In this document: one piece after another, positions 12,018-60,043 of the stretch
Numbering within the stretch: position 1 is the first letter of the stretch
How the letters are laid out: each line of letters begins with the position of its first letter
The notes under the pieces: generated by a model
Seen by the model: the letters and a program-made list of their open reading frames with translations, nothing else
Databases searched by the model: none
Told to the model about the DNA's origin: nothing
Position numbers and translations under genes: made by a program
Assembly: GCF_964213995.1 (NCBI RefSeq)
Contig: NC_135808.1
Coordinates: forward strand, 23,498,001 to 23,562,000
DNA length: 64,000 nt
Origin: Mustelus asterias
Taxonomy: Eukaryota
Direction of reading: 5' to 3'

Positions 12018-12916
12018 CTATTGTTTATTAATGAAACGGATAATTGATGTAAATGGATATTTCAGCGCGCTCTTGAACTGATCCCTGAACTTAGACTGAG
12101 TCACTCCATATATAAATGCATTTGTGCAGCAACTTAAATCCACCAGCATAACTCCAACTTGATCAAATATATATAAAGAATCGTTATAATTTGCGGGATT
12201 AGTTCCTGAAATTATATATAAGAAATTTGTAACATATAAAAACCATAAGAGTATGAAGCTCCCAGATATGGTGAAGAGTAAAATCATAGACTTCCTTCTG
12301 CCCTCCATCTCTGGGTCACTGCGATTATCGCATTTGCTCTGACCCCTCAGTCCCTTCCGTACTCGACTGGTCACTAAAATATATCTGACTGTAAGAGTGT
12401 TGAGCAACAGAATTGAAACATATGGGATCAATGGAGTTGAAACCGTTTCAAACCATTCAAATGCCACCCATCCTGGGTCAGTATAATAACTTGGTTTTTC
12501 ATTACAGAACCAGGGGACATTGTCGATTATCTCTCTAGGTTCAAACCTAAAGTAGATCGGAATGGCTTTTAAACACATCAGGGTGCAAGTGGTTGATAGT
12601 ACTGCAGCTGCAGTTTGTTCGGTGCAGTATTTCGTTTTCAGCTTCTGACAACAAATGGCCACAAATCGATCGAAGGAGAAAGTGACGGTGAACCAGACAG
12701 AACAGTTCACAGTTGCATAAAGCAGTACAAAGATAATAGTACATGCAGGGGTGATGTTCAGTAAAGATCCTGGGAAAAAGTAGCTGATCCGATATAATAT
12801 GACCGCAGTGATAATCACCAGAAGATCTGCCGCTGCCATGGCCACGAGGTACCGAGTAGTACAGCTGGAGAGACCGCAGTTTCTCCGGGACAGGATCACG
12901 ATTGCCATTAAATTAA
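12018..12916 (-). CDS. gpr139-like: Gene A exon 2: GPR139/GPR142-like class A GPCR (end of TM1 to C-terminus); spliced protein 320 aa
   Basis: Open frame with NLMAIVIL (TM1), YLVAMAAADLL (TM2), SVWFTVTFSFDRFVAICC (TM3, DRF), WFC (ECL2), ILLFTISGSFILLW (TM6), CCTNAFIY and KFR (TM7/H8). Acceptor TCCCTCCCATACAG|TT at 12918-12917, phase 1. AATAAA on - strand at 11982-11987. Confidence 0.9.
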
Positions 12917-14434
12917 CTGTATGGGAGGGATAAAAATGTAGACTGTAAGTTACTGATCCAGCATTCTCCATATCGGCTGGGTTGGTGTGGGGCAACAGCT
13001 GATTGTTTGAAATAGATCTTTATTTACCCAAAGACAATTTAAACTTGCAAATATCTGTGCTTAACAGAATTAGGATGGTGGGCTCTGGGAGGGGTTATCA
13101 TAATTTCTTTTATTTTTTAATAAACTTCAAATAATCTATTGCACATACGTCACAGACACAGTTCTCAGACTTTGGGCAATGTGAAAGGTGAAAGAGGGAT
13201 GAGCACAACTTCAAGGCTAAGGCAAGTGTCTTCATCACACTGGTTATGTGCAAGGGGAAAGTAGTAGTTTTCTTGCTTCACCTCCACCTTGCACGCAATA
13301 CACAAACTCCACCACCGCCTCAACCCCATCCAAACAGAAAGGAACCCGAAGCAGCCATCAGTCCCTGCATGTCCAGACAACCACGCCCAGTAACGAAGTT
13401 AGAACGGAACAGAACTGCTCCTGAAGAGTGCTATGAAGCCTCGCCCGCCCTACCTCCGCCGAATGTGGAGAGAGCCCTGACAACTGGGCTACTCTGAGAA
13501 CAAGAAACTTGTCAGGTATTACAGAAGCATGAAACGAAGTTTATAATATCACGGTAATTGGGGAAAGTCTAACTTGTGTTGCCTGCCCGATGCCAAAGTT
13601 CAAGACATCTGCTGAAGTCTGGAGAGGAAATTGCAGTGGGATCCACTTACTATGGTCCAGTATGGATCAGCGACATAGACAGGATAAATAAAGACGTTGT
13701 GCAGAGGCAAAACGGGATCCTCGGCAGCAGATTATGAAGTAAAACCTGAACGGTCATAACGTCGAGCCACGTGCAAATTAGCATAGGAAAATCGTATCTG
13801 AGGGCTGAAGGCATGGAGCAAACGGTGTGGGCGAACATAGTTCCGGTTCGGGGGCATTGGCAGAATAATTGCGGAAAGTTGCACCTTAACCATTGAAACG
13901 GTTAACACCTGACTTAGAAACAGATCATTCGGACCATCGAGCCTGCACCGACAATAATCCTACCCAGGCCTTATCCCCGGAACACCAAGTATTTATCCTG
14001 CTAATCTCGCTGACACAAAGGGGCAATTAAGAATGGCCAATTAAGCTAATCCACACAAATTCGGACTATGCTGAGGCTAGTTTTCTTGTGAGGAGTGGAA
14101 AGTAGAGAGGTTGTACTTGACCTGGTATTCTGCGATTAAATGGAAATAATTAATCATCCAATAGTGCAGGAGCCCCGAGGTAGCAGCGACTAAATTACAA
14201 TTGAATTTTGCACTCCGTTTCAGGGGTGGAGAAGTGGGTCTGCGAATTTCAACTGATCAATGGGATCAAGCCATCGAATCTGGGAAAAGATCGCCAATAA
14301 ATGAACCGAGACAAGGCAAAAAAGGAAGGTATTTTTAGAGGAACGGAAGAACAATCTATGACAGGAAGGGAGAGAGAGCATAAATCCCACAGTGAACCAA
14401 TGGATGACACCAGTGTTTATGAAAATAATAAGAT

Positions 14435-14733
14435 GATCATAGATTCCCTACAGTGCAGAAGAAGGTTATTTGGCCGATCGAATCTGTAACGAGCACAATT
14501 CTACCCAGCGCCTATCCCGGTAGCCGCACACATCTACCCTGCTAAGTGGAAATTCAGCATGGCCAATGAACGTGACCTGCACATCTTTGGACCGTGTGGA
14601 AACCGGAGCACCCGGAGGAAACCCACATAGACACAGTGAGAACGTACAGACTCCACGTAGACGCTGGTCCAAGCTGGGAATCGAAACTGGCGCTGTGAGG
14701 CAACAGTGCTAACCATTGTGCCACCATGCCACC
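14435..14733 (-). mobile_element. HE1-type SINE
   Basis: Reverse-complement HE1 head and core. Confidence 0.8.
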
Positions 14734-19278: not shown

Positions 19279-19670
19279 AATGTCAATGCCAATACAATTC
19301 ACATTAGAAGTTTATTACCAAACATCTTGAACCAAAAGTAAAATAAATCACTTGGCCACAGATAAGCAATAAAATACGAAGGCAAGCACACAGATCAGGG
19401 ATCAGACAAATAAAACAATGATACAAAAATACAACCAAATTGTTTCATACCAGTTAGTGACTACAGTCAGTACAATTCTACAGTGACAGCGACTCCCGAA
19501 ATCTCCCTCTGAGAGTTTCCTGCGCTGAGTCCGATTCAGTTCCACACATAACACAATTACTGATCGTGCATCTGTGCAAAATTCAGTATATCACTGTATG
19601 AAACGCAGAGCAAGGTCCTGGACCAGCTCTGGCATATCGCCAGACTTACTCAATTGCCATACTTACTCAC

Positions 19671-19734: not shown

Positions 19735-20224
19735 GTTTTTCTATGTGACGTGATCTGTCCTTCAAGCAATCTTTCTGTCTCCAACTCTGGCATGGTACAT
19801 TTGTACACGTTTTAATTAATATGGATTCTCCACTGGGACCATGAAGTTGTAAAATCATTGACGTAGATTCTTTAAAAAAATCAAACAGATTGTGAGGACC
19901 AATTTAATCCCTGCTGTGACAACTATATTTGGAGCTGAGATTGAATTGGAAAACACTAAAGAATGAACAATTTTGATCACACTATTTTTAAAAAGATGGA
20001 AATGTTGATCATTATAAAACCGTCAGGTCCATCTCTAGAATACACACAGTTTCAGTGACCACTTCACACTGCTGTTTCCAATCAGCAATTAAAATACAAA
20101 GTTGAACTGCTAATTCTGGGCTGCACCATTGAAATATTGGATATGGCTGCAGTCTTTAACTGTAACCATTCGCTTCGATTATTCCAGTGGAAGTTTTGTG
20201 TCTGTGCAGTGGGAAAATAACCCA

Positions 20225-20710
20225 AACCCTCAAACGAATATAATCCCTCAAATTGATAAGAGTGTCGCAAACAAATACAAACCCTCAAACTGATACAATC
20301 CCTCAAACAAATACAGACATTCAAACTAATACAGTCCCTCAAACTGATTCAGGCCATCAAAGTAATACAATCCCTGAAAATGATACAGTCCCTCAAAATA
20401 ATAGCCTGTCAAATTAATATATTCACTCAAACTGTTACAGTCCCTCAAACTAATGCAGCCCATCAATCTAATGAAATCCCCCAAACTAATACAATCCTTC
20501 AAACTGATAGTCTTCAACCGAAAAAAGTCCCTCAGACAAATGCTTTCCACATATTAATACAATGCTTCCAACGGATACAGTCCTTCAAACGAATACAATC
20601 CCTCAAAGTAATACAATCCTTCGAACTGATCAATGGCCGCAAACAAATACAGTCCCTCAAACTAATACTGTCCACAAACTAAGACAGTCCCTCAACCTAA
20701 TACAGTGCCA
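20225..20710. repeat. Degenerate 18-bp minisatellite (CCCTCAAACTAATACAGT)n upstream of gene A
   Basis: Repeated CCCTCAAAC with 18-nt period. Confidence 0.85.
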
Positions 20711-29307: not shown

Positions 29308-30173
29308 TTAAGTGTAGTGGCGATTGCAGTCCTCACCTGGGGGAAGGGCAGCCTTTCCACTTTCACCACTCGCTACATGGTGGCCATGGCAATGGTAGAT
29401 CTGCGAGTCATTATCAATGCTGTCATATTCTTAGGAATCAGTTCTTATTATTTGCTGTCATCTTTTTGGGGCATCGCCCCTGTTTGCAGTGTTAGCTTCA
29501 TCCTGATTTATGCAGCTACGGAATGTTCTGTCTGGTTCATTGTCGTTTTCTCCTTTGATAGATTTGAGACCATTTGTTGCTCGAAGATTGAAACAAAATA
29601 TTGCTCCGAGAAAACGGCAGTTGTTGTTCTTTCGACGACTTGAACTCTACTCTGTTTAAAAGCCAACCTGGTCAATTCAGACCTGAACCTGGAGAGGTAA
29701 TTGACAATGTTCCCTTGTTCCGTAATGACAAGCAAAGCTATTATACTGATCTTGGGTGGCATTTAATTTATTTGATAGCATTTTTACAACATTGCTCCAG
29801 TTGACTACAATTATGTTGCTCAATGCTATGACAGTCAGATATATTTTAGTGACGTGACGAGTCCTTAAGGGACTGAGGGGTCAGAACCAGGGAGAGAATC
29901 GCAGTGACCCAGAGGTGGAGAGCAGAAGGAAGTCTGTGATTTTGCTCTTCCCCTTTTCTGGCAGTCTCATACTTCAATGGATTTTAAATGGAATCAAGTT
30001 GTCGTGTGTTGGAGTGCAGGAGGTAATCACGAATATTACAATGATTCCTTGAAAGTCTTTGTGAAAATCAGACCGATGCTGGTGGATTTAAATTGCGATA
30101 CAAACGTATTTATTATGTAGTGGCCCAATGCAAGTTCAAAGAACAGTTCAAAAGTCTGGTGAAATATTCGGTT
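29308..30173 (+). pseudogene. GPR139-like exon 2 pseudogene (P), truncated at its 3' end by an ERV
   Basis: Acceptor TTTTCTCTCTTACAG at 29306-29307. Recognisable TTRYMVAMA, ECSVWF..FSFDRF..ICC, IDNVP, SRRKSVILLF, YNDS and KFKEQFKSLVKY. Extra base just after the acceptor, TGA at 29641, further stops and frameshifts. Confidence 0.88.
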
Positions 30174-31399
30174 TGTCGAAATCTCGACTTCTGAGTTTGA
30201 CTTTAACGCAAACACACATAAACACAATAAACTTAACAGACAGATTGTCTTTATTTACTTGCTAGCAAGGGGACGGTCTTGACACAATGGGTCAGAGGCA
30301 CCACTCCACCGGACGAAAGAAAACCATCCTGGTTTATCCAATTCTGCAGCTCACAGTCAGTTAGGCACAATCCAATCAAAAGTGTTACGAATGACATACT
30401 TTAAGTATTGATCCAATAGAATGAAAGTACTGAACCACGCTGATGTACAAGATCACGATACCTCGTGGGATAACCCAATATATCATCCCTAAGCCTGTCT
30501 TCTAGTCTTTTAATCAGACATCATGTCTCTATTTTGATAGCAGCCTCACAAAATATCTTCACGAAAACAGTCTCACATGGACATTCTTTAATTGAGAAAG
30601 GGGGCATTCAAAGGCCATTAGCATTTTAGGGCCTTGTCAGTGAAGTTAACTGAATCTCTAAGGGATATGGTCAACTCAACTTGGTCTCAGAATATTCCCT
30701 GATTATAGCCCTGATATGTTTGTTTATGGCCAACATAATGAAACACGTGTATATATTGCTTATCAATTCAATGACTGACCTTTTTATCACTACCTACAAT
30801 TTCGAGGGGTGTCATCATGTTTCTATTAATCATTGTCAGTTCCCATTAAGTCCCCAACCATAACTCTTTCGTTAGCTGTGATACTAATGTCTTTCTGACT
30901 CTGTTTTGATTAGAAACTGTGAAGGCAACCTCATTAAAACTCACTCTTGTATCAGTTGTTTCTGATAAGGGATCTGGTAAGGCAATTAAGTGTCCTTTAT
31001 GGCCTTGTGATTCCAACAGTTGGATGCTTTAAATGAATGTATCTAACGTATGTTTAGTATCAAAGGACACTCTAAAACTGTGCATCTAAATTTCTTTGTT
31101 TAACTTCTAAAAATGTACAGAAGATATATTTATATTTATAGACTAATTAAAGGTATTAAACATATCTTTAAAAGTACAAAGTACTAAAAACACCTAATTA
31201 CAATTACGAACAAACTTGGTCCCCATTGATAAAATGAATTCTACATCTAAGTTTGATTAAACAGAAAACTCGAGCAGAGTCTGGCAATCTCGGAGTAACC
31301 CTTTTCTTTTCTATCTTTCTACATGCCCTCCTCTTGTCCTTGTCAAGGACAACAATTTCAATCTAACTGAATCTTGTAAAGTCTCTTCATTTCCTTGTC

Positions 31400-32600
31400 T
31401 ACTGCATTCTCTGAGAGTTCTGGAGTTGTTATTATCATCATAGTGGCTACAGCTCCTGGTATAACTGCATTTCCAAACCGTGCACGGCAACACTTTATCA
31501 TGGCAAATACCAGACATAGGGTAACGATAACGGCCAAAAATACGATTAACCCATGTACTAGGGACCTACCTATTGCTCCTAAACATCACCCCACCCAACC
31601 AAAAATTCTCGAAGAATCTGGTTCCTTAAACATCTTATCCTTCTTTTGGACATGGTCCACTAAACTACCAATTTCATCAGAATACTTGGGGATGTATGTG
31701 CAGCATTCAGACCTTATTATCGCACATGTCCCACCTTTTTCAGCTAACAAATAATCTAGGGCCATCCTGTTCTGTAAAGTCACTGTCCTAATGGCTCTCA
31801 TCTCATTGCTTAACCCTTTTATAGCTTTTGTGATTTCATTTGCCACCACTTCTAATAATTTAGCTATTTTTATCATTTCGACTGAGGTAAATCCCATTCC
31901 AACAGAGGGAAAAAGGGTGGAGAAGAATTGTTGTGTTTCTGTAAGTGCGCGTTTAGACCAATAAAGGGGGAGATGTGCTAGGGAGGGCAAATGATGGATA
32001 TAAGACATTACATAGCCCAGGTAACATGACCCTTCCCAATTTAATGGCAACCAGGGATATGCTTGATGTCCATACAACAAAGTATGTTCCATTTAAGGTT
32101 CACAAACTGATACCATTTCCTTCAGTTATAGTGTTTGCAAATGTGCGGATCAGTGAAATGTTACACTTAGTTGTTCCTGCATTCCATCCACCTGTCTGTA
32201 TGCTGACCAGACAAATTGTCCCATTGGGTCTCCCTTGTTCTGTTGTGTGAGTAAGGAACAAGACAGGGGGCTTCTGAGAAAGGTTATAATTAGCTTGGAA
32301 CCTTCCATTAAATTTATTCATATTATGCCCAGCTGATTTCCAATGTTCCCTGCTATTCACTCGTCGTTCCTGAAGAAGGACTATTGTTCTGATTTTGGGC
32401 GACATTTTCTGATTCAGCCACCATTCTGATTCATTGAAAGGAATTGGACTTAAAGGAATACCTCCTTCGGGTGCGTCGGTACATGAGTACACACCCAACA
32501 GCTGGAAGCGGTGATATCCCTGGCATAGGTGTATCACATGTGCATGAAGGTATTTATGTGCAATTCACACAATACATGTATTATATATGTCACAAGAAAA
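31400..32600 (-). pseudogene. env: ERV-2 env (disrupted; ends approximate)
   Basis: WLPLNWEGSCYLG, cleavage SKR/A, ISD LQNRMALDYLLAEKGGTC, CX6CC (CAIIRSECC), hydrophobic TM near 31430-31560. Confidence 0.9.
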
Positions 32601-32622
32601 TAGAGTCTTAATGTCCAGTTTC

Positions 32623-33550
32623 CTATATCGATGAGGCTGATGATTCCTTTTCCTCGGGACCTGGAGCCCACTTGCAATGCGATGCGTGGATCCATGACGG
32701 TCTTTCCTTCACCTTGATCGCAGTGTTGGTGGTCAGCAAGACGTGAGAGGGGCCCTCAAATCGTGGGTGAAGACTATTCTCTCTTTTAAACACCTTCACA
32801 TGAAAGACGTCGCCCAGTTCTAAGTTGTGGCACCTCCCTTCTGTGGGATCAGTCTGAGCTTCCTTTACCTGGGAATGGAAACTAGAAATACATTTTGTTA
32901 ACGCAATACAATCGTTTAGCACATTTTCTTCCATTCTGTGGATATTCAAATGCTTAACAGAAATAAAAAGGCAAATGTTACGGGCTTGTGTGGCAATAGC
33001 CCAATTGTTCTGTTTGTTGCTGACCGCATTACCATTACTGCTCAGGGTAACAGTTGAACCGATTTTATTCCGGTTTCCACACAATGTTTGCCAGCTTGTT
33101 CTTCAGCATTCCATTATATCTCTATACCAGTCCAGCTGACTGTGGAGGATAACTGCAATGAAAATGCTGATTGATTCGCAATGCTTGACACATTTCTTTC
33201 ATATCTGTCCCGTTAAAATGTGATCCATTATCACTTGAAAGTTGTAGAGGTATGCCAAATCGTGGCACAATTTATTTTAGGAAATACTTAGCAACAATAG
33301 TAGCATCATTATTTTTAAATGGAAAGGCTTCAAGCCATCTAGGAAATACATCAATAATTACTAATATACACTTAACTCCCATGCACGGGGGTAATTCAAT
33401 AAAATCAATTTGCAGATTTATAAAGGGTCCTGTTGGATTTGGGTGGGAGGCAGCCTATACCTTTTCTGTTTTTCCCAGATTTATGGTTTGACAGGAAACA
33501 CATCTTTCAGTAATTTGTTTGTGGTTGCTGAAATATCTGGTGCATACCAT
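32623..33550 (-). pseudogene. pol: ERV-2 integrase remnant
   Basis: GPFINLQIDFIELP, DVFPRWLEAFP, PRFGIPLQLSSDNGSHF, YPPQSAGLV, GPSHVLLTTNTAIKV...WIHASHCK. Confidence 0.88.
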
Positions 33551-34691
33551 TTTTAAAAATATAGTCTGCCACCCCCCCCCCCCCCCCACCCCCACCCCCT
33601 TTTTCGAATCTCCAATTTACCTTCTTTTTTTTCCTTCCTCCCGGGATCTCTGTTCAAAAGGCATTCTTCTAGACAGGATATTCTATCGAGGTTGAATGTA
33701 TCAAAAGGTGGGAAAGATTTTTTCTTACCCTTGGTCCATTCTACCCATTGTTGCAGGTCACTGATTGGTGACTGACCACAATTTTGAAACAAAGAAAGCT
33801 GATGTTCCCGTCTGTGAAATTTTATTCGAACTCGCTCCCATTCTCTTAACCGATTGAGTTGGCACAGGTCACAGTATACAATCCCATTGCATCAACCGGT
33901 ATTCTCTTCGCTCACTTCACCTGGCCTTCATGTGCCCATTTGGGCTCTTAATTCCGGCTCAGTCTGGGTGTCTGTGATATTTGTTGGAAGCAAGTCACTC
34001 GTTTGCTGATCAACCGATTATCACAGCAACTCAATCAGTTAAGGGTGATTTACTTTGTATCTCTCTGTTAATTCCCAGTGATTTGATTCCCAAGGGCTCG
34101 ACAGGAACATAAAGTACAAAACGCACAACAAAAAATCACTTGCAGTACAATCTTATACTTTAACTAAACATATAAACAATTCTCTGTCTACGTTGTGTGC
34201 CACCACAGACAGAGCCCTTAGCACATTATCTTAAACTCTAACAGTGCACTTTACTTAATCTCACTTATGATCCTATCACAGAAGGATCGGTCCTATCACA
34301 CAAGGACTCTATCTGTCCCTTTTAGCTTTTTTGCTCCATCAAACAAGGGCTTATTCCTCTCACAGATGGAACAGTAACTTTCTCTCTTTCTTCTGACGTC
34401 TTTCCTGTAGGCTTACTTACACAACCTGTCCAGTCTGTTCAGGAGTGGATTTTGAACAATCTGTCCCTCTTTGTCGTCAAGCTAAAGAAGAGGAAGTGAT
34501 AAAAATAAGTTACTGAAATCAGTCAAATATCGCAGGACACCCGCCGGGACAAACAGACTGCACTTTCATCCATCCAAGGGAGGGCCTCTTTAGTGACTGA
34601 AGTATCACCCTTTATTTCACTGGCCAGTTGGAGTCATTCCTTGGAGAGCCGCTGTCCTTGTGTCTGTTTACTCACCAGGTAGGGGCAAGTG

Positions 34692-34709
34692 ATTTTGGAG
34701 GAACCTCCA
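34692..34709 (-). promoter_or_regulatory. Primer-binding site, tRNA-Gln-like
   Basis: TGGAGGTTCCTCCAAAAT versus the tRNA-Gln complement TGGAGGTTCCACCGAGAT; adjacent to the LTR end. Confidence 0.7.
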
Positions 34710-35897
34710 AGGAACACTGTCGAAATCTCGACATCCGAGTTAGACTTTAACATAAACACATATCAACACAAAATACTTAACCGGGACCCCTCGGCTCCCA
34801 CCCCTCCTTGTGTCCTTTAATTTATATGTTTGATTCATGTTTTTCCGATCAATATTAATCACTTAATCTGCACTTGACCACCAACTCCACCAATTTATCT
34901 CAGTCATTTAGAAGTTCTGCACTGTCCACCTCCAAATTCCACAATTTTGCGAATTTGCATATCATCTACAACCTTTGAAAGTCTGCCCTGTACAATAAAG
35001 GATGCAATATGAGAAGTTTGATTGATCCGAACTAAGATTTATGGGGACCACTTTCTAACAATAACGCCCAATCGGAAAACGCATCAGGTTATAGAAACGT
35101 TAACCATTTAGCAGGAAACAAAGTTTAAATGATGAATTCAGAAAGAATATGAACCAATTGCCAGTAATTAGCAGCACTTAACAAAAAGAGAAGACAGAGC
35201 ATCGCTCTATCCACTTCTCTCTAATAACACCTTCTCCCAACACCTCTCGCTACATCTTGATCTCTATCTCTGTCTGCAATTTCCTCAACGTATCTTCCCA
35301 TCGCAGTTCTTCTCATCCTTTTATATGCCACAGCACATTTCTTTACTATTTAAGAATAGAGAGGTAATTCTGCTATTTTCCCAGAACTGCTCTACGGCAA
35401 ATACTTCTCTGGGCGGATTTTAAGCCTACATTGTCCCGAGTGCACTTTTCGTGCCCCTTACATCACATTCTCGAATTGGAGGATACTCTTTCATTTCTTC
35501 GTATATCACATCCTGTGTCGCACATTCTGTCATCTTCCCTTACTGGGAACTTTGTTTTGGAGATGGCGAGCATAGAGCTGAAGACAAAGGTTAGCTTTAG
35601 TTTAATTGCCTCAATTTTTAATCATTTCGATTATTTTTTCGGGGATTGGGGGTTGGGAGGGAGGGGGGGGGGGGGGTGGTGGTGGTGGCGCGGTGTTCTT
35701 CACAATGCACCAGTGTAGCTTTGCAGACCAGCTGGGAACCACTGCTCTAACGTTCTTTTAACATCTCCTTTGGCCCTTCTCTCGACAAGAAGGCTTCTGA
35801 GAGTCATTTTTTAAAAATTCCTTAAACTGTTTAAATCTCACCTTTTTTCCAATTTTTGGAAATTACCCTGGATAAAATATTCTGAAGAACAGCTCAT

Positions 35898-40056: not shown

Positions 40057-40058
40057 AT

Positions 40059-40765: not shown

Positions 40766-42105
40766 ATGGCAGATAATGAAGTTAAAAGGGGACCTGCAGG
40801 ATCCTTCATTGAAATTTACATGACAAACAGGAAAGAGTTAATAAAGAGAATGCAAAACGACGGCTGGGATACTTCTCAGACCTTAGAACAGCAGAGAAAG
40901 TGGATAGATAAAGAAAAGAGAAAGAAGACAAAGAAGATAGGAGTAATATTATCACATCAATTAGCTGGTCTAATTGAGCAAGTAGTCACCTCGACTAAGA
41001 AGTGGAGTGAAGATAAAGAAAGGATTAGAGAATTAGAATCCCGAGTGAGGGAACAGGAGAAGCAAAATCAGGTTTTAGAAGAAAAGCAATGGAGAGGGGA
41101 AACTGTTCCTCTAACTCCTTATGAGTCCACACAGCAGGGACCAACCACTCCTTCAGAGGAGTGAGAAGCGCTAGAACACAACTTAGCGCCAGTAACCCGA
41201 GGGGGAACAAATGCACGACCAAAGGCAACTTATCAACCCTTCACCCCAGGTGAGAGACAGCAGATAATGGCTTCCCTGGGTAAATTACAACCCAGAAGCG
41301 CAAGTACTAAATTCTGGGAATAATTAGACACAATCTGGATAGGACACCAATTACACCTGAGAGACATATACCAGCTGGACAGGGCAGCCTGTCCAGCGGA
41401 TAAGTGGAGGCATGTAGCTGGTGGACCAGCAGCTCCTCCAGCACAGCATTATAATGGGGGACGGTGGACACATGCAGTCTCCCTAGCATCAGAGATAGAT
41501 GCCCAACAGGCACCCTTCACCCAGTTCAAAGCAGAGATTCAGAGGGTATTAGGGAATGCTTCCACTAACTGGAGAAGACTTACCACAACAAAACAGTTAA
41601 AAGGGGAAGGAGCTTCTGAATACGGGGAACGATTGTTACAGGTATATCAAGAGTGCTCAGGACAAGGGAACCCAGGTCGAGGGGATTGAGCATTCATCCA
41701 GGCTTTTAAGGATGGACTCTCTAGCGCTCACCAGGTCATCCTAAAAATGGGAGTGATAATGTCCCAAGATTACGATGAATTGGTAGCGTGGGCCAGCGGA
41801 GTACCAGGAGAAGAAAAATCCCAGGCAAGAACAAGGCCAGAAAGAGTAGCAGCTTACAGTAATGGGAATGGAACAAAGTCTAAACTGACTTGACTCAATT
41901 GTGGTCGGCAAGGACACTTTGCGAGGGATTGCGGGACTCCACGGAAAGGGAACAGGTTTTGAACAGTGGGAAACATTGCAGCCACTGTAATAAATGTGGA
42001 CACACAGAAGCAGTGTGTTGGAATAAGCATGGAAAACCCTCGACCCGATCCATGACCACAGCAGAACCAGAGGAACCACAGGACCTCCGGGGTCAGCAAG
42101 ATTGA
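40766..42105 (+). pseudogene. gag: ERV-1 gag (disrupted)
   Basis: Coiled-coil-like N-terminus; two CCHC knuckles (*LNCGRQGHFARDC near 41890, first Cys mutated to TGA, and CSHCNKCGHTEAVC); stops and frameshifts. Confidence 0.8.
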
Positions 42106-42109
42106 CGGT

Positions 42110-43983: not shown

Positions 43984-44239
43984 TGATGTGGAGATGCCGG
44001 CGTTGGACTGGGGTAAACACAGTAAGAAGTTTAACAACACCAGGTTAAAGTCCAACAGGTTTATTTGGTAGCAAAAGCCACACAAGCTTTCGGAGCTCCA
44101 AGCCCCTTCTTCAGATGAGTGGGACTTCTGAATTCCCACTAACCTGAAGAAGGGGCTTGGAGGTCCGAAAGCTTGTGTGGCTTTTGCTACCAAATAAACC
44201 TGTTGGACTTTAACCTGGTGTTGTTAAACTTCTTACTGT
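43984..44239. mobile_element. Short palindromic Penelope-derived element (arms about 105 bp) inside ERV-1
   Basis: Near-perfect inverted repeat over 44019-44239; same family as 18565-18801; no TSD. Confidence 0.8.
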
Positions 44240-44254
44240 ATTTGTGATCCACAG

Positions 44255-44508
44255 GCATCCATGTCTTCCAGATGATGACTGGCTGCAACCTGAGGGATGA
44301 TGGGACTACGAGTGCATTCAACCAGTTTGGGTGGGATGGACAGGATGTTCTCAGCTTCGACAAGGATCACATGGTGTGGGTGACCCCAGTGCTCTGGGGA
44401 GATGTCATCAAAAACTATCTTGATAGGGACACTGCCAACAATGAGCGACTCAAACAATTCCTGGAGGTGGACTATATTGAGTAACTGAGGTAATTCCTCA
44501 AGTTCGGG
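44255..44508 (+). pseudogene. MHC class I heavy-chain alpha-2 domain exon fragment embedded in ERV pol
   Basis: After the acceptor GATCCACAG (phase 1): GIHVFQMMTGCNLRDDGTTSAFNQFGWDGQDVLSFDKDHMVWVTPVLWGDVIKNYLDRDTANNERLKQFLEVDYIE*LR*FLKFG. Matches the class I alpha-2 pattern (GxHxxQxMxGC...DGxDxxxF...W...LExxCxEWL). Second Cys is Tyr; two stops. Confidence 0.9.
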
Positions 44509-44619
44509 ACATATGAAGTTATAATTAGTGGAGACACCTGTGCCTGTATAGACATAAGAGGGAAAGGTGTCTGGAAACACTGGACACAACTAAAATTACA
44601 CAAGGGAACAAATAAGTAA
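44509..44619 (+). pseudogene. pol: ERV-1 integrase C-terminal GPY/F-like remnant
   Basis: (G)TYEVIISGDTCACIDIRGKGVWKHWTQLK fits the GPYxV...WxHxxxLK integrase tail pattern, also seen in ERV-2 as GPSHVLL...WIHASHCK. Confidence 0.7.
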
Positions 44620-44699
44620 TTAAATTGATGAACTAACAGAACTGATTTCCTCAACACAGGCAAAGACTGCAAACAAGAACGACTGGTGCGCGCGGGTTG

Positions 44700-46253
44700 A
44701 TAGATAATATAACTTGTAAAGATTATATGAATTATCGTGTTAGGTTTGATATTTGATCGTTGTGAATATGTATTTAATCGCGTATGTAACTGTACTACTT
44801 TGCATTGCCGCGACTGTAAATTTAACTGGATTGGAGGATAACTTGTTTTACAAAGCTCACATAAATTAAGACGGGAATCGAACTGTATGTTACCCGTTAG
44901 CACAATTGGTAGAAGCCCTATTTGTAGCCACCCCTGGGTGGACCCCTCATGACTTATGTACTGTAGATACATCAGATACACCCTGCAAGGGACAAATTGG
45001 CAAATATAAAAGAGGTATACAGGGGAGACGTGTGGGACTTGTAAATCCCACAGATCCTGTGTTCAGGGGGTTCCAACAGGTGGGAGGAATAGCTTGTTCA
45101 GATACTGCAAGCTATCCGCTTTGTTTTATGGGGCAGGGAGGGGATGTGCCTATGCCTTGGTCCCAAAGAATTATTCCTGCGTACAGATGCAGTGTGTCCG
45201 TCAACATTGTCAGATTAATAAGGGACAGTTTACTTGCACTTGTGATGAACAGAAATGTCTCAATATAACTGCGGACAATGCAATGGAACTCACGTAATCT
45301 CAGCCAAATGGACATACCCATTTGATACTTACCAGGTGGTGGGGTCAAACGGGGAGTCAAGTAAACCGAACAATTGGCAATATGAACAAACTCATAATCA
45401 AGACACTAAATGTTACCGGGCTAAGAAGGGATATGTGTTCCTCTTCAATGGTACTTACATGACAGAAACACCAAACCTCCCAAACCATTTTGCAGTCGGA
45501 ACAATAGGACCACTGACTGTTCCATGCCCTCAGAAGGGGCATATTCGGAGGAGAATAGTAACTCGGGCTATCAGCAAAAATTCTGCGCTGACTGGGAAGC
45601 CCCGGGCACAATGGGATCCTCACTGGGATATGGGTTCCTTGGAGCCTTATCCCTGCGGAGGGGCGGGGGGTGGGCGGGGTGGGGGGGGGGGGGGTGGTGG
45701 GGGAGGGCAGCAGGAGTGATTAGTGCAAAGAATAGGAATCATATTGTTTGTGGACTAACAGTCCTGGGAAACAGCACTTCAAAAGCACTGGAGGCTGTTA
45801 ACCAAGAAATGGCTGAACTGAGATTATATGCACAGCAGACACAATATGCAGTGGACTATCAGTTAGCACAACAAGGGGGAGTGTGTACAATTATAGGCAA
45901 TAAATGCATAACCCATGTCACGGACGAGTCCTATAACATTACACAGGTCATCAATAGCAACAGAAAAACAACTTGATAGCTTCAGACAGGGACCCAAGAA
46001 AAGATGTAACTGGCTGGAATGGTTAGTAGGGGGGTTCTGGGAGTCTTACCTATGACATGGATTGGTCATACTCGTTTCAATTGTAATTGTCTGTTGTCTG
46101 ACTGTTGGATGCTTTAAAGTCTGTTTTAAAATAATGTTGGCTAGAATTGTGCCAGGAGCCAGTGTATACATCGAAGAAGAAAACCCGATGAAGATCCCCG
46201 AAGACATCAGAAGAAATGAAGAAGGAAAGAAGAACAAAGAATTATACATGTAA
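44700..46253 (+). pseudogene. env: ERV-1 env (frameshifted; start approximate)
   Basis: Cys-rich SU fragments, basic cleavage-like RRRIVTRA, heptad ALEAVNQEMAELR, ISD-like VDYQLAQQGGVCTIIGNKC, hydrophobic anchor near 46062-46120. Confidence 0.85.
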
Positions 46254-46306
46254 AAATTGCTGGTCTAGGGATTAGTGAAACTCATAATCCGACCAAAAGT
46301 GGGGAC

Positions 46307-46935
46307 TGAAGTGGGAAAAATATACAGATGGGTACACATAAAATGGCTGTCTGGCACATAAACAGTCACCTCGGAAAGAGACATTAAACAGGCACTGACG
46401 TTCAGTACAGACAACCACCTGAGATTAAAGGACAGACAGCTATTCAAAGTTCAAGATGCAGGAATCAAATCCTGCAGGAAGCCAGCCAAGGCTTGAGGCA
46501 CTCTTTCGGATAAGGACAATAGGGTTGGATAACGAAATTAGCTACAGGTGGGATTGGAATACCTAACTGCAGGAAAGCCAATTACTGTAAATTACGATAT
46601 GAATAGATTGAAACTAAAACCACTGATGGCCACTGACAAAGCAAATGTATCCATTCATAGAACAATGTGATGTTAACATGTTGATGTCTGTATCTGTCCG
46701 TATTTGTCTACAGCAATGTGTTAACAATCGATCACCTACTTGATTACAACGATGTGATAATGGCTAGATGTCCGGTCCAGCCATTGTGTAAAGGGTATAA
46801 AGATGGACTACTCCTATAGTCTCATTGAGAGAAGGTTTGTTGCTTGTTAGTGCCTTTTCTTCACGAAGCTTCGTTAAAATAAAACTGTATTCTTGAAACC
46901 TTCAAGCCTGACTCAGTGGTACACTTCCCACAACA
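46307..46935 (+). repeat. ERV-1 3' LTR
   Basis: Preceded by a polypurine tract; TATA box near 46795; AATAAA near 46878; imperfect terminal inverted repeat TGAAGTGGGAA/TTCCCACAACA. Confidence 0.9.
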
Positions 46936-47552: not shown

Positions 47553-49674
47553 ACCGGAGAATAACTAGTCGCAGAATTCAATTAGTAACATGTCCAGATG
47601 CTCAGGGTCACACTTTAGGACAGGATGGGAATGTCCATCAAAGCGATCCCTCAAACAGTGTTTGCTGTTTCCCATATATAAGGGAACACATCATGAGCAG
47701 AGAATACAGCTGTTAGAGTGAAAGGAATACAAATAAGTTGTTTCTCCATGTGTATGCATTTTGCGAAGTAAGAAGGTGAAAGGTTAGGCGATGTATCTGT
47801 GTGTATGGATAGTGAGTTGTTTCGGGAACGAGACTGGTTAGAGGGTGTGACGGGAAGAGCGGACCAATGTCTTGCAAGGGGCGAAGGCGGGAGAGGAGAT
47901 GAAGATGAGTTTGGAGGTGGAATTGCGCTGGAACTGGAGGAAAAGCAAAGGGAGGTCTGTTGAATGTTCAAGGTGAGGAATGTGTCATCATCATCAAAGC
48001 TGAATCCGAGACTGAGAAACAGGGAAAAAAAGAAATGACGCATGTCCAGGAAGTCGGGTGGATGAAAACCTAATCAAGTGAACTGGGGAAATCAGTGCGT
48101 AGTAAAGATTGCTGAACAGCCATTCCCCTGAAATGGAGAGAGATAAGTCGGGAAGCAAATGAGATGAATCATCTGAAGATGGGCCGTGTGGCCTCCTGTG
48201 CATTGTAGACATTCTATAAAATACTACTCGGGTTAGATTAAGAGTGATTAAGAGCCATTCGGCCCATCGTGTGGGGCATAAATACCGACTGAAACCAATT
48301 GGACGGACAATTTCAGAGCTGTAAATGCAATGTTGTTCTATGTTGCTGGATTTTTATTTAAGAAGTCAACAGTTGTTTCATAATATTGCAGACATTGAAA
48401 TGACTTACTGATGAAGAAGGGCACTACTATTCATCTCAATATTAACACTATAATTGTATTAATGCTTACTGTCCTCAGGCTGATATCTGTGTTATGAAGG
48501 CCTATTTCGATGCTCGGCCTGAGAGAAAACACCTCATTGAGCTAAGGGTGGAAATTGGTGCTGGTTACATATGTTAAATAGATAATTACTGGTCTGTCAA
48601 ATTAATCCATTACAGGAATGGATACCCAGTGCCCGATGCAATGTACAGACTATCAAATACAACACTTGTAAGCACAGAACATTGTTGGAAAAAATAATCA
48701 GCACTGCATTGGTTAGCACACAGTGTTTGCAGCAATCATACTTATTAGAACCCCAGAATCCCTCCAGCGCAGAAGGAGACAATTCGGCCCATCGAGTCTA
48801 TGCAGACTCTCCGATGGAACGTCTTACACCCCCCCCCCCACCCCCTCATCCTTCTGCCCTTTTCCCTTAACCCCATTAACAATGGCCAAACCATCTAATC
48901 TGCACATCTTTGGACACTAAGGACAATTGAGCATCACATAATCAGACTTTTGAATGGAACTACCATATATCAAGCTTTTCTTTCTCTGCAACCTGGCTGT
49001 TAAGACAAGACTATATGCAACACCCACTACTTTCCTTCTCCCCTATGTACTCTACGAATGTTATATTTTGTCTGTACAACAGGCAATAATCAATACTTTA
49101 CACTGTTTCCAAATGCATCTAACAATAATAAATCAAATCAGATGAAAAATAGAGCACCCGGAGAAAGCACACAAAAACATGTGAGAACGTGCAAACTATG
49201 CACAGTCACTCTAATAGCAATTCATTCTTCAAACTGTTGGAATGCATTCAACGTGTTCTCCATCTCTTATCTGCCGTTAAATAGTGGAGATCTGTTTCTC
49301 TTCGTGTAAGTTGAAATAGAAAGATCAATATCAATACATTTCATTGGAAACATGTAATGAAACAACTGGAAAAGTCTCCTGTGTTACCATTGGTTACGTT
49401 GATAACTACGAAGACAAATCTACGGAGTGGAGAGAAAGATCAGTCACCACAAACAATGATACAGAAAATTAATCAGTTTGTACTGCTCAAGTGACTGCCC
49501 CACACTCAATTCTATTGTGACAGATACTCCCAGGAATACTTTCCAAATGAGAATTAACTGATAGCGGTACGACTGTGACCACTAGATCAGCATGCAATAT
49601 TATGAGGCACAGTGTAAAACCAGAGACCAGCTCACATGCACATATACTTAAATTCACTTGTTGTAGCTATGCAC

Positions 49675-49738
49675 CAGGAACACCAATGACAGCAAGAGTC
49701 ATGTAGTACACTTTCCCGAAACTATCAAGGGATTCCAT
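49675..49738 (-). other. Orphan first exon B of a GPR139-like paralog (MESLDSFGKVYYMTLAVIGVP + 1 nt); no own exon 2 found
   Basis: Same 64-nt length, phase and sequence as exons 1 of A and C; weaker donor GTGCAT; flanking promoter and intron blocks homologous to gene A. Confidence 0.8.
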
Positions 49739-50424
49739 GCTCCCCTGTCCCTTCACTGTGTTGGCAATCACTAGGAATTAAATTCTGAGTTGATGCAGTC
49801 ATATAACTTATATCATGTGAGATTTCCACTGAGACTATGAAGTTGCAAACAGATGATCACTCCCATGTTCGGTCCCTGTTGTGGGAGACTTAATTGGTAA
49901 ACCCTAAAAATACCGCAACTTCAGTTACATTAATTAACTAATGAAAATTGGAAGCTCAATTGTTCCAGCAACAGTGATGAATATTCAAAGGTCATCAAGG
50001 TCCATCTCTCAATCTCATAGGTGGGAATAAAGAAACACAGAAAGGCCAACGAATCCATCGTGCCTGGTCCGCTATTTGGACCATCGAGCCTTGTCCGCCA
50101 ATTAACTAGATAATGGCTGATCTTCCACCTCAATGAAACTTTCTTACACTATATTCATATTGTTTGATGTCATTTTTGCCTCCGAATCTATCGATCTCTG
50201 CTTTGAACAATCTCAACCATCAAGGTTTCACAGTCCTCTCTGAGGCAGTGAACACCAAAAGGTCTATACCTTCTGTCTGAAGATGCTCCTTCTCATCTCG
50301 TTGACAAATGGTGTAACTCTTGTTCTGAGATTGAGACGATGGTTCTAACCAACCCCCACTCCTGCGCAACACCCCCAAGACACACACACTGTTACCTCTC
50401 ACCCTAACACCTTGGAGGATCAAA

Positions 50425-55859: not shown

Positions 55860-56260
55860 GAACAGTTTTAGTGGCTCTATTAATGTGTTGGTTTGTGTTA
55901 GTTTGTGGGGTTATGTTAGTTTGAGAATCGGTATTAGTTTGTGCTCCTATATTAATTTGAGGGGCTGTATTAGTTTGTGGGACTGTTTTGGATTCAGGAT
56001 ACTTATGCGTTTGATGTTCTTTATTAGCTTTAAGGACTGTAGTATCTGAGGGATTGTATTTGTTTGAGGGTCATTATTTTTTGAGGACCTTTATTAGTTT
56101 GAGGGACTGTATCAGATTGAGGGTTTGTATTTGTTTGAGGGGGTGTATCAGATTGAAGGTATGTCCCAGTTTGATGGACTGCATTAGTTGAAAGCTTGTC
56201 CTGATTTGATTGGCATGTCTAATTGTGGGGTGCTGTATAATTTGAGCTGCTGTATCAGTA
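55860..56260. repeat. Degenerate 18-bp minisatellite (TTTGAGGGACTGTATTAG)n upstream of gene C
   Basis: Reverse complement of the 20.2-kb array. Confidence 0.85.
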
Positions 56261-56662: not shown

Positions 56663-56690
56663 TCCCTGTGGAGATTTCATGGGGTATAAA
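56663..56690 (+). promoter_or_regulatory. Putative gene C core promoter: TCCCTGTGGAGA motif plus TATAAA
   Basis: Motif conserved at a similar distance (82-104 nt) upstream of the ATG in A (19827-19838) and B (49823-49834). Confidence 0.55.
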
Positions 56691-56755: not shown

Positions 56756-56819
56756 ATGGAAACATTTGAGATGATCAGAAAAATATACTACATGCTTCTT
56801 GCTGTCATCGGTGTCCCTG
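56756..56819 (+). CDS. gpr139-like: Gene C exon 1 (METFEMIRKIYYMLLAVIGVP + 1 nt)
   Basis: 64 nt from ATG to a GTAAGT donor at 56820; paralogous to gene A exon 1; TATAAA at 56685-56690. Confidence 0.9.
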
Positions 56820-57067: not shown

Positions 57068-57520
57068 TACTGGGAGTAACTGTCACTGCAGTATTGTACC
57101 GAGACTGGATGTTAACCGAAATGTACCACTTGACCCCCAATGGTCATGATTACTGGGTGTCTCTTTCACTGTAGAATTGCACAAAGTGTTGGTCATTAAC
57201 TAGAGTGGAACACATGATCCCAGTGATTATGTATTACTGGGGGTGTCTGTCACTGAAGCATTGTACTGCGTATGGATCACTAACTAGACTATAACACCTG
57301 ATCAGGACCACATATTATTGTGAGTAACTGTCTCACAGTGTGGGTCTTAACTGGAATGGAACTCCCGACCTCAGTGACCATATATTACAGGGAGCATCTT
57401 TCACTGTGGAATTGTACTGAGCGTGTGTCTCTAACTGGAATGGAATTCCTGATGCGAGTAACCACGCATTGCTGGGTATATTCGTCATTGTGGAATTGTA
57501 CTGAGAGGTTTACCTACGTG
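57068..57520. repeat. Degenerate tandem repeat, unit about 83 bp, about 6 copies, in the gene C intron
   Basis: TACTGGG..TGTCACTG..GAATTGTAC recurs near 57068, 57151, 57235, 57315, 57386 and 57470. Confidence 0.7.
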
Positions 57521-59102
57521 AGTGGAACCAAGTGGTTTCTCTCATGAAACTGCTGCTTTAGGTGAATGATCTCTCCAATCCATGGAGCCGTCACTGTGAT
57601 TCACGGATGTTACCGATGGCAATGGAGGAATCCTTTGCTGTTGTGTGACATTTTCTATTACTTGCATAAAATAGAATATATTCGTGTTACTGAAAGAAGA
57701 GACATGTGGAGTGTTTTGTTTTGCACTCCTCAGGACACTTTGCATCAATATCTACCTCAGGACTATGCCCTGATGTCAGCAAGACAAAAAACTTTATCAT
57801 CTCACTTTTTTCAGCAACACTTCCGTTCTGTACTATCAGATGACTATTTATATTCGTACTGCTCTGTTCCATTCTGAACTGCATTAACAGAAACTCATGG
57901 TAATTGTTTTCTGAGAGGCACACCTTCAAGGGAGCACTGGTACTATCCCCTATTCTGATGATTATTAATGAAAATTCTTTACCTTCTCATTATCATATTA
58001 TCAAATATTTCCTCCCTTACCAACATTTGATTATTATTAAGATTTTCCTTCAATGTATTCACTATTGTTGAACATTGAATTGGAGAACTTCATCAATTTA
58101 ATTTTTTCCTCCCTGTTATCTCTGACTACATGGGTTCACAACCTCCATTCAAAAGATTGTTATGAACCCCTTCACCTTGCCCGGATACTGGGACAAAAAG
58201 GTTGTTTTCTGATCCAAGATCTGGCATACATTCCGACCTAGGCCGTCCAGTTACAAACATTTCCACAAACCCGCGGGTCAGAACCAGGGGATGCAGCTGC
58301 AAATGACCTGTGAACTGGCTTCCCAAATGCACCACTAACCCGGGGATGTGGGATTATTCCAAGGGTGTTCCATTGCAATGCCTTGAAAAAAATCAGGATA
58401 CCCTCACAAACCTTGAAGTGGTATTAGACCTAACAATTTCACTCAAATCCCATTCCAACCCCAGACGACGTTCAGTCTTGGGGCTCCAATTACCACATAA
58501 TACTCCAATTCTCAGATCTCTGGTGATCCAATTCTCCCCCAACCTTCCCCCCGCCTCCCTCCCCACTCCCAGCCGTGCAGGGATCCACTCACAGTGAGGA
58601 TCGGAATATCTGCCCAACTGCAGTGGAGGCAGGGCTGCGGATGGGGGGTGGGGGGGAGGGTGCGGGGTGATTCCAAAGGGTCTGAATGGCATCTAACCCA
58701 GTGTTGGGGGATCTGTAGCCCAAGGGTACAGGGATTGCGAAAGCTGGGTGTATTTAAATGGAATCAAATAAGGAAAAAAACGTGCCTGGCCAGGGTAACA
58801 TCTGTGAATCACATTCAATCAGAGACTTCTGTCATCGTTAAATAATTAACATTCCATCTCGTCTACTTGAGTGGCTGTTGGTCCCTTCTCTCTCGCCCAA
58901 TCTCTTTCTATCTGGCAGTCAGCAGTTTGAAGATGGGATTGAGATACTTTAACGAATATCCCCGAGCACCACACGCATACACACGCACACGCGCTCACAC
59001 ACACGCACACGCGTGCACACACATGCACTCACTGAATTAGATCACACAACAAGAATGTTTGGTTGATAATTTCTAACCTATTACCCATTATCTCCCTTAC
59101 AG

Positions 59103-60043
59103 TCAATTTACTGACAACTGTGATCCTGTCCCGGGGAATGTGTGGCCTCTCCACCTGCACCACTCGTTATTTGTTCGCCATGACATTGTCTGACCTAACA
59201 TTCAATTTCATTGCGGTGGTACTGTATCGGATCCGTTCATGTTATTTCCCAGGATCTTTTCTGGACATCACCCCTGTGTGTCGTCTTGTCGGTATGCTGC
59301 TTTATGCAGCTGGAAACTGCTCGACCTGGTGTACTGTCATGTTCACCTTTGATCGCTTTGTGGCCATTTGTTGTCAGAAACTGAAAATAAAATATTGCAC
59401 TGAGAAAACTGCAACTGTGGTTCTATCAACAATCTGCATCCTGAGCTGGTTAAAATGCATTCCCTATTACTTTGCATTTCAACCTGGCGTGATAATTAAC
59501 AATACTCCCTGGTTCTGCACAAGGAATCCAAGCTATTTTACTGACCCAGCTTGGGTGGCATTTGACTGGCTTAGTAAGGTTTCAACTCCATTTCTCCCAT
59601 ATATTTTAATTCTGTTGTTCAATGCTCTGACAGTCAGATACATTTTAGTGACCAATCGTGTCCGCAAAGGACTGATGGGTCAGAACAAGGGGGAGAATCA
59701 CATTGACCCAGCGATGGAGAGCAGAAGGAAGTCCATGATTTTACTCTTCACCATATCTGGCAGCTTCATACTTCTGTGGCTTTTATATGTGATCAACTTC
59801 TTATACTATAGAATTACAGGAACTTATCCCGTAGACTACAATGATTCTTCATCTATTTTTAAGGAAGTCGGATCTATGCTGGCTGAATTAAACTGCTGTA
59901 CAAACGCTTTTATTTATGGGGTGACTCAATCTAAGTTCAGGGAGCAGTTCAAGAGTTTAGTGAAATATCCGGTTACATTATTTATTCAATTTATGAATAA
60001 AGAAAGCAAAAGAGGGAAGCTCCTCCATACTTCGATCAATTGA
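59103..60043 (+). CDS. gpr139-like: Gene C exon 2: GPR139/GPR142-like GPCR; spliced protein 334 aa
   Basis: Branch-point-like TTCTAAC at about 59071, polypyrimidine tract, AG at 59101-59102. Open frame with DRF, WFC, CCTNAFIY and KFR. 64+941 = 1005 nt in frame. Confidence 0.9.

Follow-up and report, generated by a model that had tools for sequence, protein, structure and literature searches.

A large family of compact shark receptors named GPR139 in databases combines a variable pocket with a conserved intracellular face and is a candidate chemosensor repertoire

Results

Two intact receptor genes and two gene fragments at one locus

The window, a stretch of 64,000 nt from contig NC_135808.1 of Mustelus asterias, harbors two intact receptor genes (A and C), one pseudo-exon (B) and one orphan exon (D), each confirmed where a first-pass annotation of this DNA had placed it. 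Gene A on the minus strand consists of coding exon 1 (19734-19671), which encodes the N-terminus and most of TM1, an intron of 6754 nt, and exon 2 (12916-12018), which runs intact from the end of TM1 to the stop, giving a product of 320 aa. Gene C on the plus strand has the same layout (exon 1, 56756-56819; intron, 2283 nt; intact exon 2, 59103-60043) with a product of 334 aa, and the stop codons of A at 12018 and of C at 60043 form the ends of the locus. Both second exons match Pfam 7tm_1 (E 2.6e-21 for A and 2.2e-18 for C), and seven helices, modelled in the relative P0012, with N1.50, D2.50, R3.50 and Y7.53 place the receptors in class A (rhodopsin). The N-terminal glycosylation site is absent in both. 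The DRF motif in A, B and C and the CCTNAFIY motif in A and C are present as first described. Searches with Rfam and ARAGORN gave no matches.

Unit B (29308..30173, plus strand) is a pseudo-exon 2 with five frameshifting indels (a +1 insertion at 29312 and deletions of 1, 4, 1 and 1 nt) and in-frame stops at 29641 and near 29855, and it has lost its last codons, the 3' end being cut at 30173. A broken retrovirus-like insertion on the minus strand (30174..34781; Pfam TLV_coat and MLVIN_C), with a 64-bp direct repeat at 30174 and 34718, begins exactly where the homology of B stops and is context outside the receptor; the lost 3' end of B was not found beyond it. In all, the cluster contains two broken proviruses, and sequence that occurs more than once in the window makes up 27% of its length. 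Unit D (49675..49738, minus strand) is a coding exon 1 with an open frame and a splice donor less typical than those of A and C.

The coding part of exon 1 in A, C and D is in each case 64 nt from ATG to GT and of phase 1. Although 61 open ATG..GT stretches of this length occur in the window as chance background, a matrix built from the N-termini of 42 relatives gave the three exons 54, 48 and 44 bits, against 8 for the runner-up site, bearing out the three first exons of the earlier annotation. Neither an exon 1 upstream of B nor an exon 2 downstream of D was found in the window with tblastn, nhmmer or the matrix. With three first and three second exons, the locus can therefore be read as four units or as three genes, so that the pieces of the four paralogous units proposed earlier stand and their number is one of two readings. 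The best exon-1 matches of D are Cetorhinus P0007 (16/21) and P0009 (14/21); FastTree places B near the same two genes (support 0.58), and IQ-TREE leaves B unresolved. D and B may thus be one gene split by an inversion. D may alternatively be paired with exon 2 of A, to which it joins in frame to give 320 aa.

A conserved 12-nt block lies upstream of A (19827..19838, minus strand, just 5' of a TATA-like site), D (49823..49834, minus strand) and C (56663..56674, plus strand). The block is probably a promoter element. Its pattern is derived from its own three copies, which makes the chance figure circular. The TATA-like site, which precedes the ATG of A, C and D by 71-87 nt, points to a short 5' UTR. 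The block was also considered as an O/E (EBF) site and rejected: what we take to be the O/E consensus has no exact match within 200 nt upstream of any ATG and is not counted as evidence. In addition, an 18-bp minisatellite upstream of A (20227..20706) is the inverted counterpart of that upstream of C (55894..56189), and it belongs to the duplicated unit.

The receptors belong to a large and clustered shark family

In one search, 2117 of 2756 candidates were relatives of these receptors at E<=1e-3. The best 120 of the 2117 are all from sharks, including 72 from Heterodontus francisci, counted as clusters less than 90% alike; among these best 120, at least 25 H. francisci members lie on one contig and at least 12 on another, contigs being told apart by their length. 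Members were seen in 10 shark species among the matches listed, as well as in a skate (P0408). A and C are 77% and 69% identical to Cetorhinus P0004, respectively, and identical to no listed match. Together with B, they fall in a clade with seven Cetorhinus genes from one contig and genes of catshark, whale shark and zebra shark. Species-restricted subclades in the tree and a pseudogene indicate turnover. Copy number, contig clusters and subclades thus uphold the earlier view of a clustered, multi-copy, birth-and-death shark family, and the family search rules out low copy number with one-to-one orthology. Clustering, high copy number, a pseudogene and lineage-specific turnover make up the genome pattern of chemoreceptor families. 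A passage of PMC10869828 gives 20-62 olfactory receptor genes per cartilaginous fish, fewer than the at least 72 Heterodontus members among the best 120 of 2117.

The name GPR139 is carried by 116 of the 120 best matches; such shark genes belong to the same family as A and C, and their names are automatic. Recognisable exon 1 is missing from 65 of the 120 best database models, and pseudogenes or haplotype duplicates may be among them. Literature searches found no paper describing the family, and no GPR139 match was present in the supplements of the whale shark paper (12 of 24 files), PMC12361510 (11 of 12) or PMC13188829 (8 files).

Two single-copy clades are closer to the family than GPR139

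Human GPR139 is the best solved relative of the family (E 4.6e-11 and 45.8 bits with a single sequence; 7.8e-23 and 84 bits with the profile), followed by solved receptors, including CCR5, at 60 bits or less. GPR139 is nevertheless outscored by two other vertebrate clades, at 175-242 bits to the family profile, and by five more distant proteins. The first clade, an amphibian and sturgeon orphan receptor (Pleurodeles P0229, Xenopus tropicalis P0390 and Acipenser P0406; 175-242 bits), is the sister group in both trees (0.93; SH-aLRT 91), FastTree and IQ-TREE, which contain no true GPR139 or GPR142 protein. It shares a short N-terminus and a similar ICL3 motif with the shark family, but forms one cluster per species (20 amphibians and one sturgeon), keeps P6.50 and a near-invariant pocket, and is only 25-29% identical to A and C. 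The next branch out (SH-aLRT 98; 201-221 bits) is a second orphan clade of jawed vertebrates (Latimeria P0238), likewise with a short N-terminus and no P7.50, but with a conserved pocket. Sharks own an ortholog of this second clade (P0269, P0272 and P0276), making it a paralog of the family; it is possibly the GPR210 of PMC6504862, whose taxon range it resembles.

The family shares with GPR139 two exons, at an intron position that we presume to be the same as in GPR139/GPR142, and a TM7 without NPxxY (NFFLY in GPR139); with GPR139 as the nearest solved receptor, these features place it in the wider GPR139/GPR142 clade. By contrast, human GPR139 has DRY and P6.50 and lacks a Cys at the corresponding TM3 position, whereas among the best 120 relatives DRF is found in 111, P6.50 in only 2, and C3.25 is kept. 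GPR139 is 70% conserved from human to zebrafish according to part of PMC7318219, an ortholog-level conservation that the above scores of 45.8 and 84 bits do not reach. Judged from these comparisons, the family probably did not arise by expansion of GPR139 itself and looks like a separate lineage despite its database name; the descent from GPR139/142 proper proposed earlier is not favored by the profile scores.

That the family consists of GPR139/142 duplicates sensing free aromatic or other amino acids, as the first-pass annotation had supposed by analogy, is accordingly improbable on the pocket evidence. The section of PMC5430874 on the Trp/Phe pocket of GPR139 names E3.32, F3.33, H5.42, W6.48, R6.51 and N7.39, which are kept in 0, 13, 4, 120, 2 and 1 of the best 120 relatives, respectively. 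A and C retain only W6.48, a generic residue, and with their Y at 3.33 this aromatic pair is consistent with amino-acid sensing, as are the rank of GPR139 among solved receptors, the database names and the two exons shared by both genes (PMC7318219, in part). The rarity of the other five pocket residues in the family and the higher scores of the two vertebrate clades and five more distant proteins argue against it.

Kinship to known chemoreceptors was not found either. No family Pfam domain of OR, V1R, T2R or V2R is present, 7tm_1 being the only domain above cut-off; C has one sub-threshold Srx match. TAARs are an aminergic lineage with D3.32. This position carries L in both window genes and, for the most part, L, S, R, I or T across the 72 Heterodontus paralogs; together with the nearest solved receptors, GPR139 and peptide receptors, this leaves TAAR kinship unsupported. 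The structure model of a relative, P0012 (pLDDT 86.6), rather than of a window protein, shows ECL2 as a beta-hairpin and comes closest to galanin and neurotensin receptors, in a fold search that does not discriminate, peptide receptors and GPR139 all being near E 1e-9 to 1e-8.

The pocket is variable and the intracellular face is conserved

A and C have a dN/dS of 0.33 (bootstrap 0.24-0.46), indicating purifying selection, and they differ at 13 of 24 pocket residues and 27 of 112 intracellular TM residues, with pocket positions that we take from a class A consensus. Across the 72 Heterodontus paralogs, column entropy is 1.62 bits in the pocket, 0.84 in the other extracellular TM positions (computed without TM1) and 0.39 in the intracellular TM positions (p 0.0004, for columns that are not mutually independent). 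The order is reversed in the 21 single-copy amphibian and sturgeon proteins (0.10, 0.56 and 0.59 bits), at a similar overall identity (74% against 76% in the paralogs), and the 53 proteins of the second single-copy clade, at 0.65, 0.98 and 0.85 bits, likewise have a pocket less variable than the intracellular side. The pocket-variable direction was repeated in Cetorhinus (p 0.01), Heptranchias (0.014) and Pristiophorus (0.07). The cysteine linking TM3 and ECL2 is kept in 72 of 72 Heterodontus paralogs. At the level of sequence, a hypervariable pocket joined to a conserved intracellular face is evidence for a diversified repertoire, evidence that the earlier annotation lacked. Its OR/TAAR-type repertoire is thereby strengthened as a diversified one and loses its argument from the N-terminus and TM7: the short N-terminus is common to the single-copy relatives, and the missing NPxxY to these relatives and human GPR139, so both are inherited traits and no argument for a sensory role.

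The pocket dN over global dS for A and C, the only pair with DNA, is 0.73, and being below 1 it is compatible with relaxed constraint. Mostly neutral drift in repeat-rich shark genomes, leaving weakly expressed copies whose pockets vary freely, would also suit the self-repetition and proviruses of the window and the many database models without a true first exon. Such drift is improbable, as it sits poorly with the overall dN/dS of A and C, with an intracellular entropy below that of both single-copy controls, and with conserved promoter blocks and the spread of members over 10 shark species and a skate among the matches listed.

Discussion

The best explanation, to which we give a probability of roughly 45%, is that the family is a ligand-diversified sensor repertoire, most likely for external chemosensation. 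A and C would function within a multigene family of compact class A GPCRs in elasmobranchs. Local duplications of an ancient gene would have produced this family; amphibians still carry that gene at one per species, and it turned up once in sturgeon. Every gene has a short putative promoter block to itself, followed by a very small first exon and a single large second one. Selection holds the intracellular half, which faces the G protein, almost constant, whereas the pocket (3.29, 3.32, 3.33, 3.36, 7.35, 7.39, 7.42 and 7.43) varies from copy to copy, and many specificities could thus feed one signalling pathway. The receptors may serve olfactory, taste-like or solitary chemosensory cells in detecting varied water-borne molecules or peptides.

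At the genome level the shark family resembles the OR, TAAR, V1R, T2R and FPR repertoires and nematode srw in its clustered birth-and-death genes, variable pocket and conserved intracellular face. It differs from them in that it belongs to none of them by sequence, its coding region is split by one intron, A and C lack an N-terminal glycosylation site, and its sensory expression is putative. Nematode Srw chemoreceptor clusters also appear among Atlas look-alikes, which is a lead only. By analogy only, an excerpt of PMC10638732 lists a 'probable GPR139' among the highly expressed genes of a deep-sea snail osphradium. Catshark olfactory neurons are described in a passage of PMC10116579 as all microvillous with robust V2R expression; the nose thus has a known repertoire, which counts against an olfactory reading. 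Moreover, part of PMC11979771 reports catshark V2Rs in testis and rectal gland, so that family expansion is no proof of olfaction.

Immune receptors also diversify in a pocket-variable manner. Pocket hypervariability with a fixed intracellular face and rapid turnover would fit equally well with immune or barrier sensors that recognise peptides of microbial or damage origin on leukocytes or mucosa, much as formyl-peptide receptors do, as would the conserved TM3-ECL2 cysteine and the peptide receptors among the closest folds. We consider such a role unlikely but the foremost of the rivals, given the lack of close kinship to chemoattractant receptors, with CCR5 among the solved receptors at 60 bits or less, and of any immune gene seen in the window. 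Somewhat less likely still is a part in internal or reproductive signalling, with a range of peptides as ligands (in gonad, sperm, oviducal gland, gut endocrine cells or brain), which would agree with a neuropeptide-receptor ancestry. The part of PMC8514136 on the wider clade joins MIP/sex-peptide, FMRFamide and proctolin receptors with GPR139/142, and the ECL2 hairpin of the model and its galanin and neurotensin receptor matches agree with this. Receptors for a fixed endogenous ligand, however, keep their pocket, as in both single-copy control clades, and dozens of pockets would require an equally large ligand family; we know of none of that size.

In summary, chemosensation as the preferred reading could extend to a bolder proposition, which we hold tentatively: that sharks and rays have no larger chemoreceptor family than this one, which would be a seventh family of chemosensory GPCRs in vertebrates. 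It would have arisen by independent recruitment of an orphan gene resembling neuropeptide receptors, paralleling nematode srw, and have stayed hidden as 'GPR139'. If true, it would resolve the contrast between large olfactory organs and only 20-62 olfactory receptor genes, a paucity that passages of PMC10869828 and PMC10116579 explain as sensitivity traded for discrimination. The whale shark paper likewise notes a relative paucity of GPCRs in cartilaginous fishes (PMC8455134), and non-traditional olfactory genes are suggested in a preprint on the Greenland shark (10.1101/2025.02.19.638963). A GPCR repertoire with diversified pockets and at least 72 members in one horn shark changes the picture of shark receptor biology regardless of the tissue, and sharks may use the family to detect chemicals in a manner so far unrecognised.

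Receptor genes and their surroundings in the window

The window DNA is vertebrate and rich in repeats. LINE/retroviral remnants aside, its identifiable long open frames comprise a pair that encode 7TM proteins, plus one broken copy. Gene A (minus strand; coding exon 1, 19734-19671; exon 2, 12916-12018; intron 6754 nt) encodes a 320-aa product, and gene C (plus strand; coding exon 1, 56756-56819; exon 2, 59103-60043; intron 2283 nt) one of 334 aa, both spliced in frame across a phase-1 GT-AG intron close to the end of TM1. Unit B is an exon 2 only (29308-30173, plus), disrupted by premature stops and by indels that shift the frame at five places, and its homology stops at the exact start of a broken retrovirus-like element. 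Unit D is an open exon 1 (49738-49675, minus). The bare ATG-to-GT pattern fits 61 stretches in the window; an exon-1 matrix scored the three first exons at 54, 48 and 44 versus 8 for the next site, a match strength far above chance. They also resemble genuine N-termini of database relatives, D being identical to a basking shark protein at 16 of 21 residues. Of the four paralogous units reported by the first-pass annotation, the two intact genes, pseudo-exon 2 and orphan exon 1 were recovered, but each of the two exons occurs exactly three times in the window. Two decayed genes could account for D and B, as could a single gene divided by an inversion; D may instead serve A as an alternative first exon.

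A conserved block with a TATA-like site lies 71-104 nt 5' of the ATG in A, C and D, and A and C have about 1 kb of upstream homology in common, including an 18-bp minisatellite; the duplicated unit thus takes in its promoter. Another short element, possibly regulatory, is common to the introns of A (19441-19503), D (49472-49537) and C (57149-57503), about 170-350 nt 3' of exon 1, and is tandemly multiplied in C with an 84-bp period.

Between B and D lies an old insertion, a broken endogenous retrovirus (39466-46933, plus) whose two LTRs are 78.8% identical across 632 nt and which retains part of RT (42896-43303) along with a heptad region resembling env (45425-45973). The second broken element (30174-34781, minus), adjoining the truncated end of B, retains traces of env at 31589-32092 and of the integrase C terminus at 32626-33102, and its ends have just 64 bp of terminal repeat in common. 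LINE reverse-transcriptase fragments occur at 2057-6417 and 35883-37243, stacked side by side at 2-6.4 kb. A tandem array at 8770-9080 (23-bp unit, 13.5 copies, 94% matches) is directly next to a short interspersed repeat with many further copies in the window.

Size and range of the shark family

With gene C exon 2 as query, 2117 proteins among 2756 candidates matched at E<=0.001. Taxa, names and contigs were taken from the best 120 of these 2117, which came from Heterodontus francisci (72), Pristiophorus (12), Cetorhinus (10), Heptranchias (9), Chiloscyllium (4), Mustelus, Scyliorhinus torazame and Stegostoma (3 each), and S. canicula and Rhincodon (2 each). Among the best 120, 116 are labeled probable or putative GPR139, and at least 25 Heterodontus proteins apparently lie on one contig and at least 12 on another. 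At E<=1e-30, an exhaustive search with 50% clustering yielded 110 clusters, many of them fragments. One skate protein is also a family member. In the trees, A, B and C share a group with genes of catshark, whale shark and zebra shark and with seven from a single Cetorhinus contig (FastTree support 0.955 for 14 of the members; IQ-TREE, 94), suggesting that the DNA probably comes from a galeomorph shark and that the receptor cluster is old.

A recognisable first exon is absent from 65 of the best 120 models and a short one is present in 50; its omission may be a sign of low or restricted expression. In many RefSeq models (P0015, P0026, P0094 and P0115, among other database relatives), exon 2 is joined to unrelated 5' sequence that by eye resembles LINE or histone sequence, the 64-nt first exon having been overlooked.

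These genes are already in RefSeq under an automatic name only, and the family appears undescribed as a biological entity. No description of the expansion was found in the open literature, where GPR139 together with shark retrieved only unrelated papers. In the accessible text, sharks and paralogs go unmentioned in a 2025 GPR139 review (PMC12208981), GPR139 appears in a reference only in a chemoreceptor review (PMC12294341), and the expansion is not described in PMC8455134, PMC8514136, PMC10638732, PMC10869828, PMC12361510, a Greenland shark preprint or the searched part of the PMC13188829 supplement. According to its accessible portion, PMC12361510 removed families of >100 copies ahead of its expansion test. 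This coverage extended to open-access text and part of the supplements, so an earlier mention is possible.

Probable ancestry separate from GPR139

The best solved relative is human GPR139, a weak match at 45.8 bits (C) and 84 bits (35-sequence family profile). With HMMER filters off and bit scores comparable, the profile scored three amphibian proteins at 223-242 bits, a sturgeon protein at 175, a second vertebrate clade at 201-221, three unnamed proteins at 136-154 and two remoter ones at 112-118, which does not support the previously proposed descent from GPR139/142 proper. The amphibian/sturgeon gene (one copy in each of 20 amphibian species and one sturgeon; 25 matches of 1675 candidates) is sister to the shark family in FastTree (199 sequences; 0.93) and in IQ-TREE (58 sequences, fast mode, SH-aLRT; 91), and the second clade branches next (0.96 and 98). 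True GPR139 and GPR142 were not in these trees, so the proposed separate lineage rests on scores and residues, a picture that fast evolution of GPR139-proper could distort.

The pocket of the amphibian/sturgeon orphan GPCR (P0229, P0387-P0406) is near-invariant. The second-clade orphan (P0238, P0269, P0272, P0370), also auto-named GPR139, is conserved from sharks to squamates and turtles; the 120 listed of 145 proteins span coelacanth, sharks, with orthologs of their own, sturgeon, teleosts, amphibians, turtles and squamates, and include none from mammals or birds. Two records carry the name TMEM183A isoform, suggesting that the gene adjoins TMEM183A, and the clade may be the GPR210 treated in the accessible part of PMC6504862. 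The amphibian sister gene has P6.50 in TM6, as do 6 of 44 divergent representatives; of the 120 closest relatives only 2 retain it, indicating its loss in the large subclade.

The GPR139 pocket, established by mutagenesis in the accessible portions of PMC5430874 and PMC7318219, is not preserved in the shark family: among the 120 closest relatives, W6.48 is kept in all 120, whereas E3.32 is kept in 0, F3.33 in 13, H5.42 in 4, R6.51 in 2 and N7.39 in 1. Amino-acid sensing by analogy with GPR139, which the first-pass annotation had put forward, is therefore improbable. Its structural arguments for a sensory role also lose their force as inherited traits, since GPR139 itself lacks NPxxY and N-termini are equally short in single-copy relatives.

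Pocket diversity and candidate function

A and C evolve under purifying selection (dN/dS 0.33, 0.24-0.46). They differ at 13 of 24 pocket, 21 of 64 other extracellular TM and 27 of 112 intracellular TM positions; pocket dN over global dS is 0.73, no demonstration of positive selection. For column entropy, we assumed 25 pocket positions from the class A consensus, chosen before the run. Across 72 Heterodontus paralogs, pocket columns averaged 1.62 bits of entropy, compared with 0.84 for the remaining extracellular TM positions without TM1 (omitted because N-termini are wrong in many models; with TM1, 1.16, p 0.018) and 0.39 for the intracellular part. The order was opposite in both single-copy controls, at 0.10/0.56/0.59 for 21 proteins (mean identity 74%, vs 76% in the paralogs) and 0.65/0.98/0.85 for 53 of the 120 listed second-clade proteins (of 145), and the pattern persisted in paralogs subsampled to 21 (1.46 vs 0.74). 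This signature would be expected for many receptors that bind different ligands and are served by one common downstream pathway; neutral drift as the source of the diversity is as improbable as GPR139-like sensing.

The signature carries no tissue identity. External chemosensation is our tentative reading of these sequences (probability about 0.45), and immune sensing by the same receptors is unlikely. The model of relative P0012 has a confident 7TM fold, with TM1 from residue 2 and an ECL2 beta-hairpin, and its closest fold matches are peptide receptors; internal or reproductive peptide signalling seems a little less likely still than the immune role. Counting against chemosensation, no report on the expression of family members was found in the open literature and, in the accessible text of the respective papers, catshark olfactory neurons are microvillous with robust V2R expression (PMC10116579), and expanded V2Rs are expressed beyond the nose as well while a top-50 olfactory list holds zero GPCRs (PMC11979771).

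The shark family appears to be a birth-and-death GPCR repertoire, a known kind of system with an unexpected ancestor, and its ancestral ligand would emerge from deorphanising the amphibian/sturgeon GPCR.
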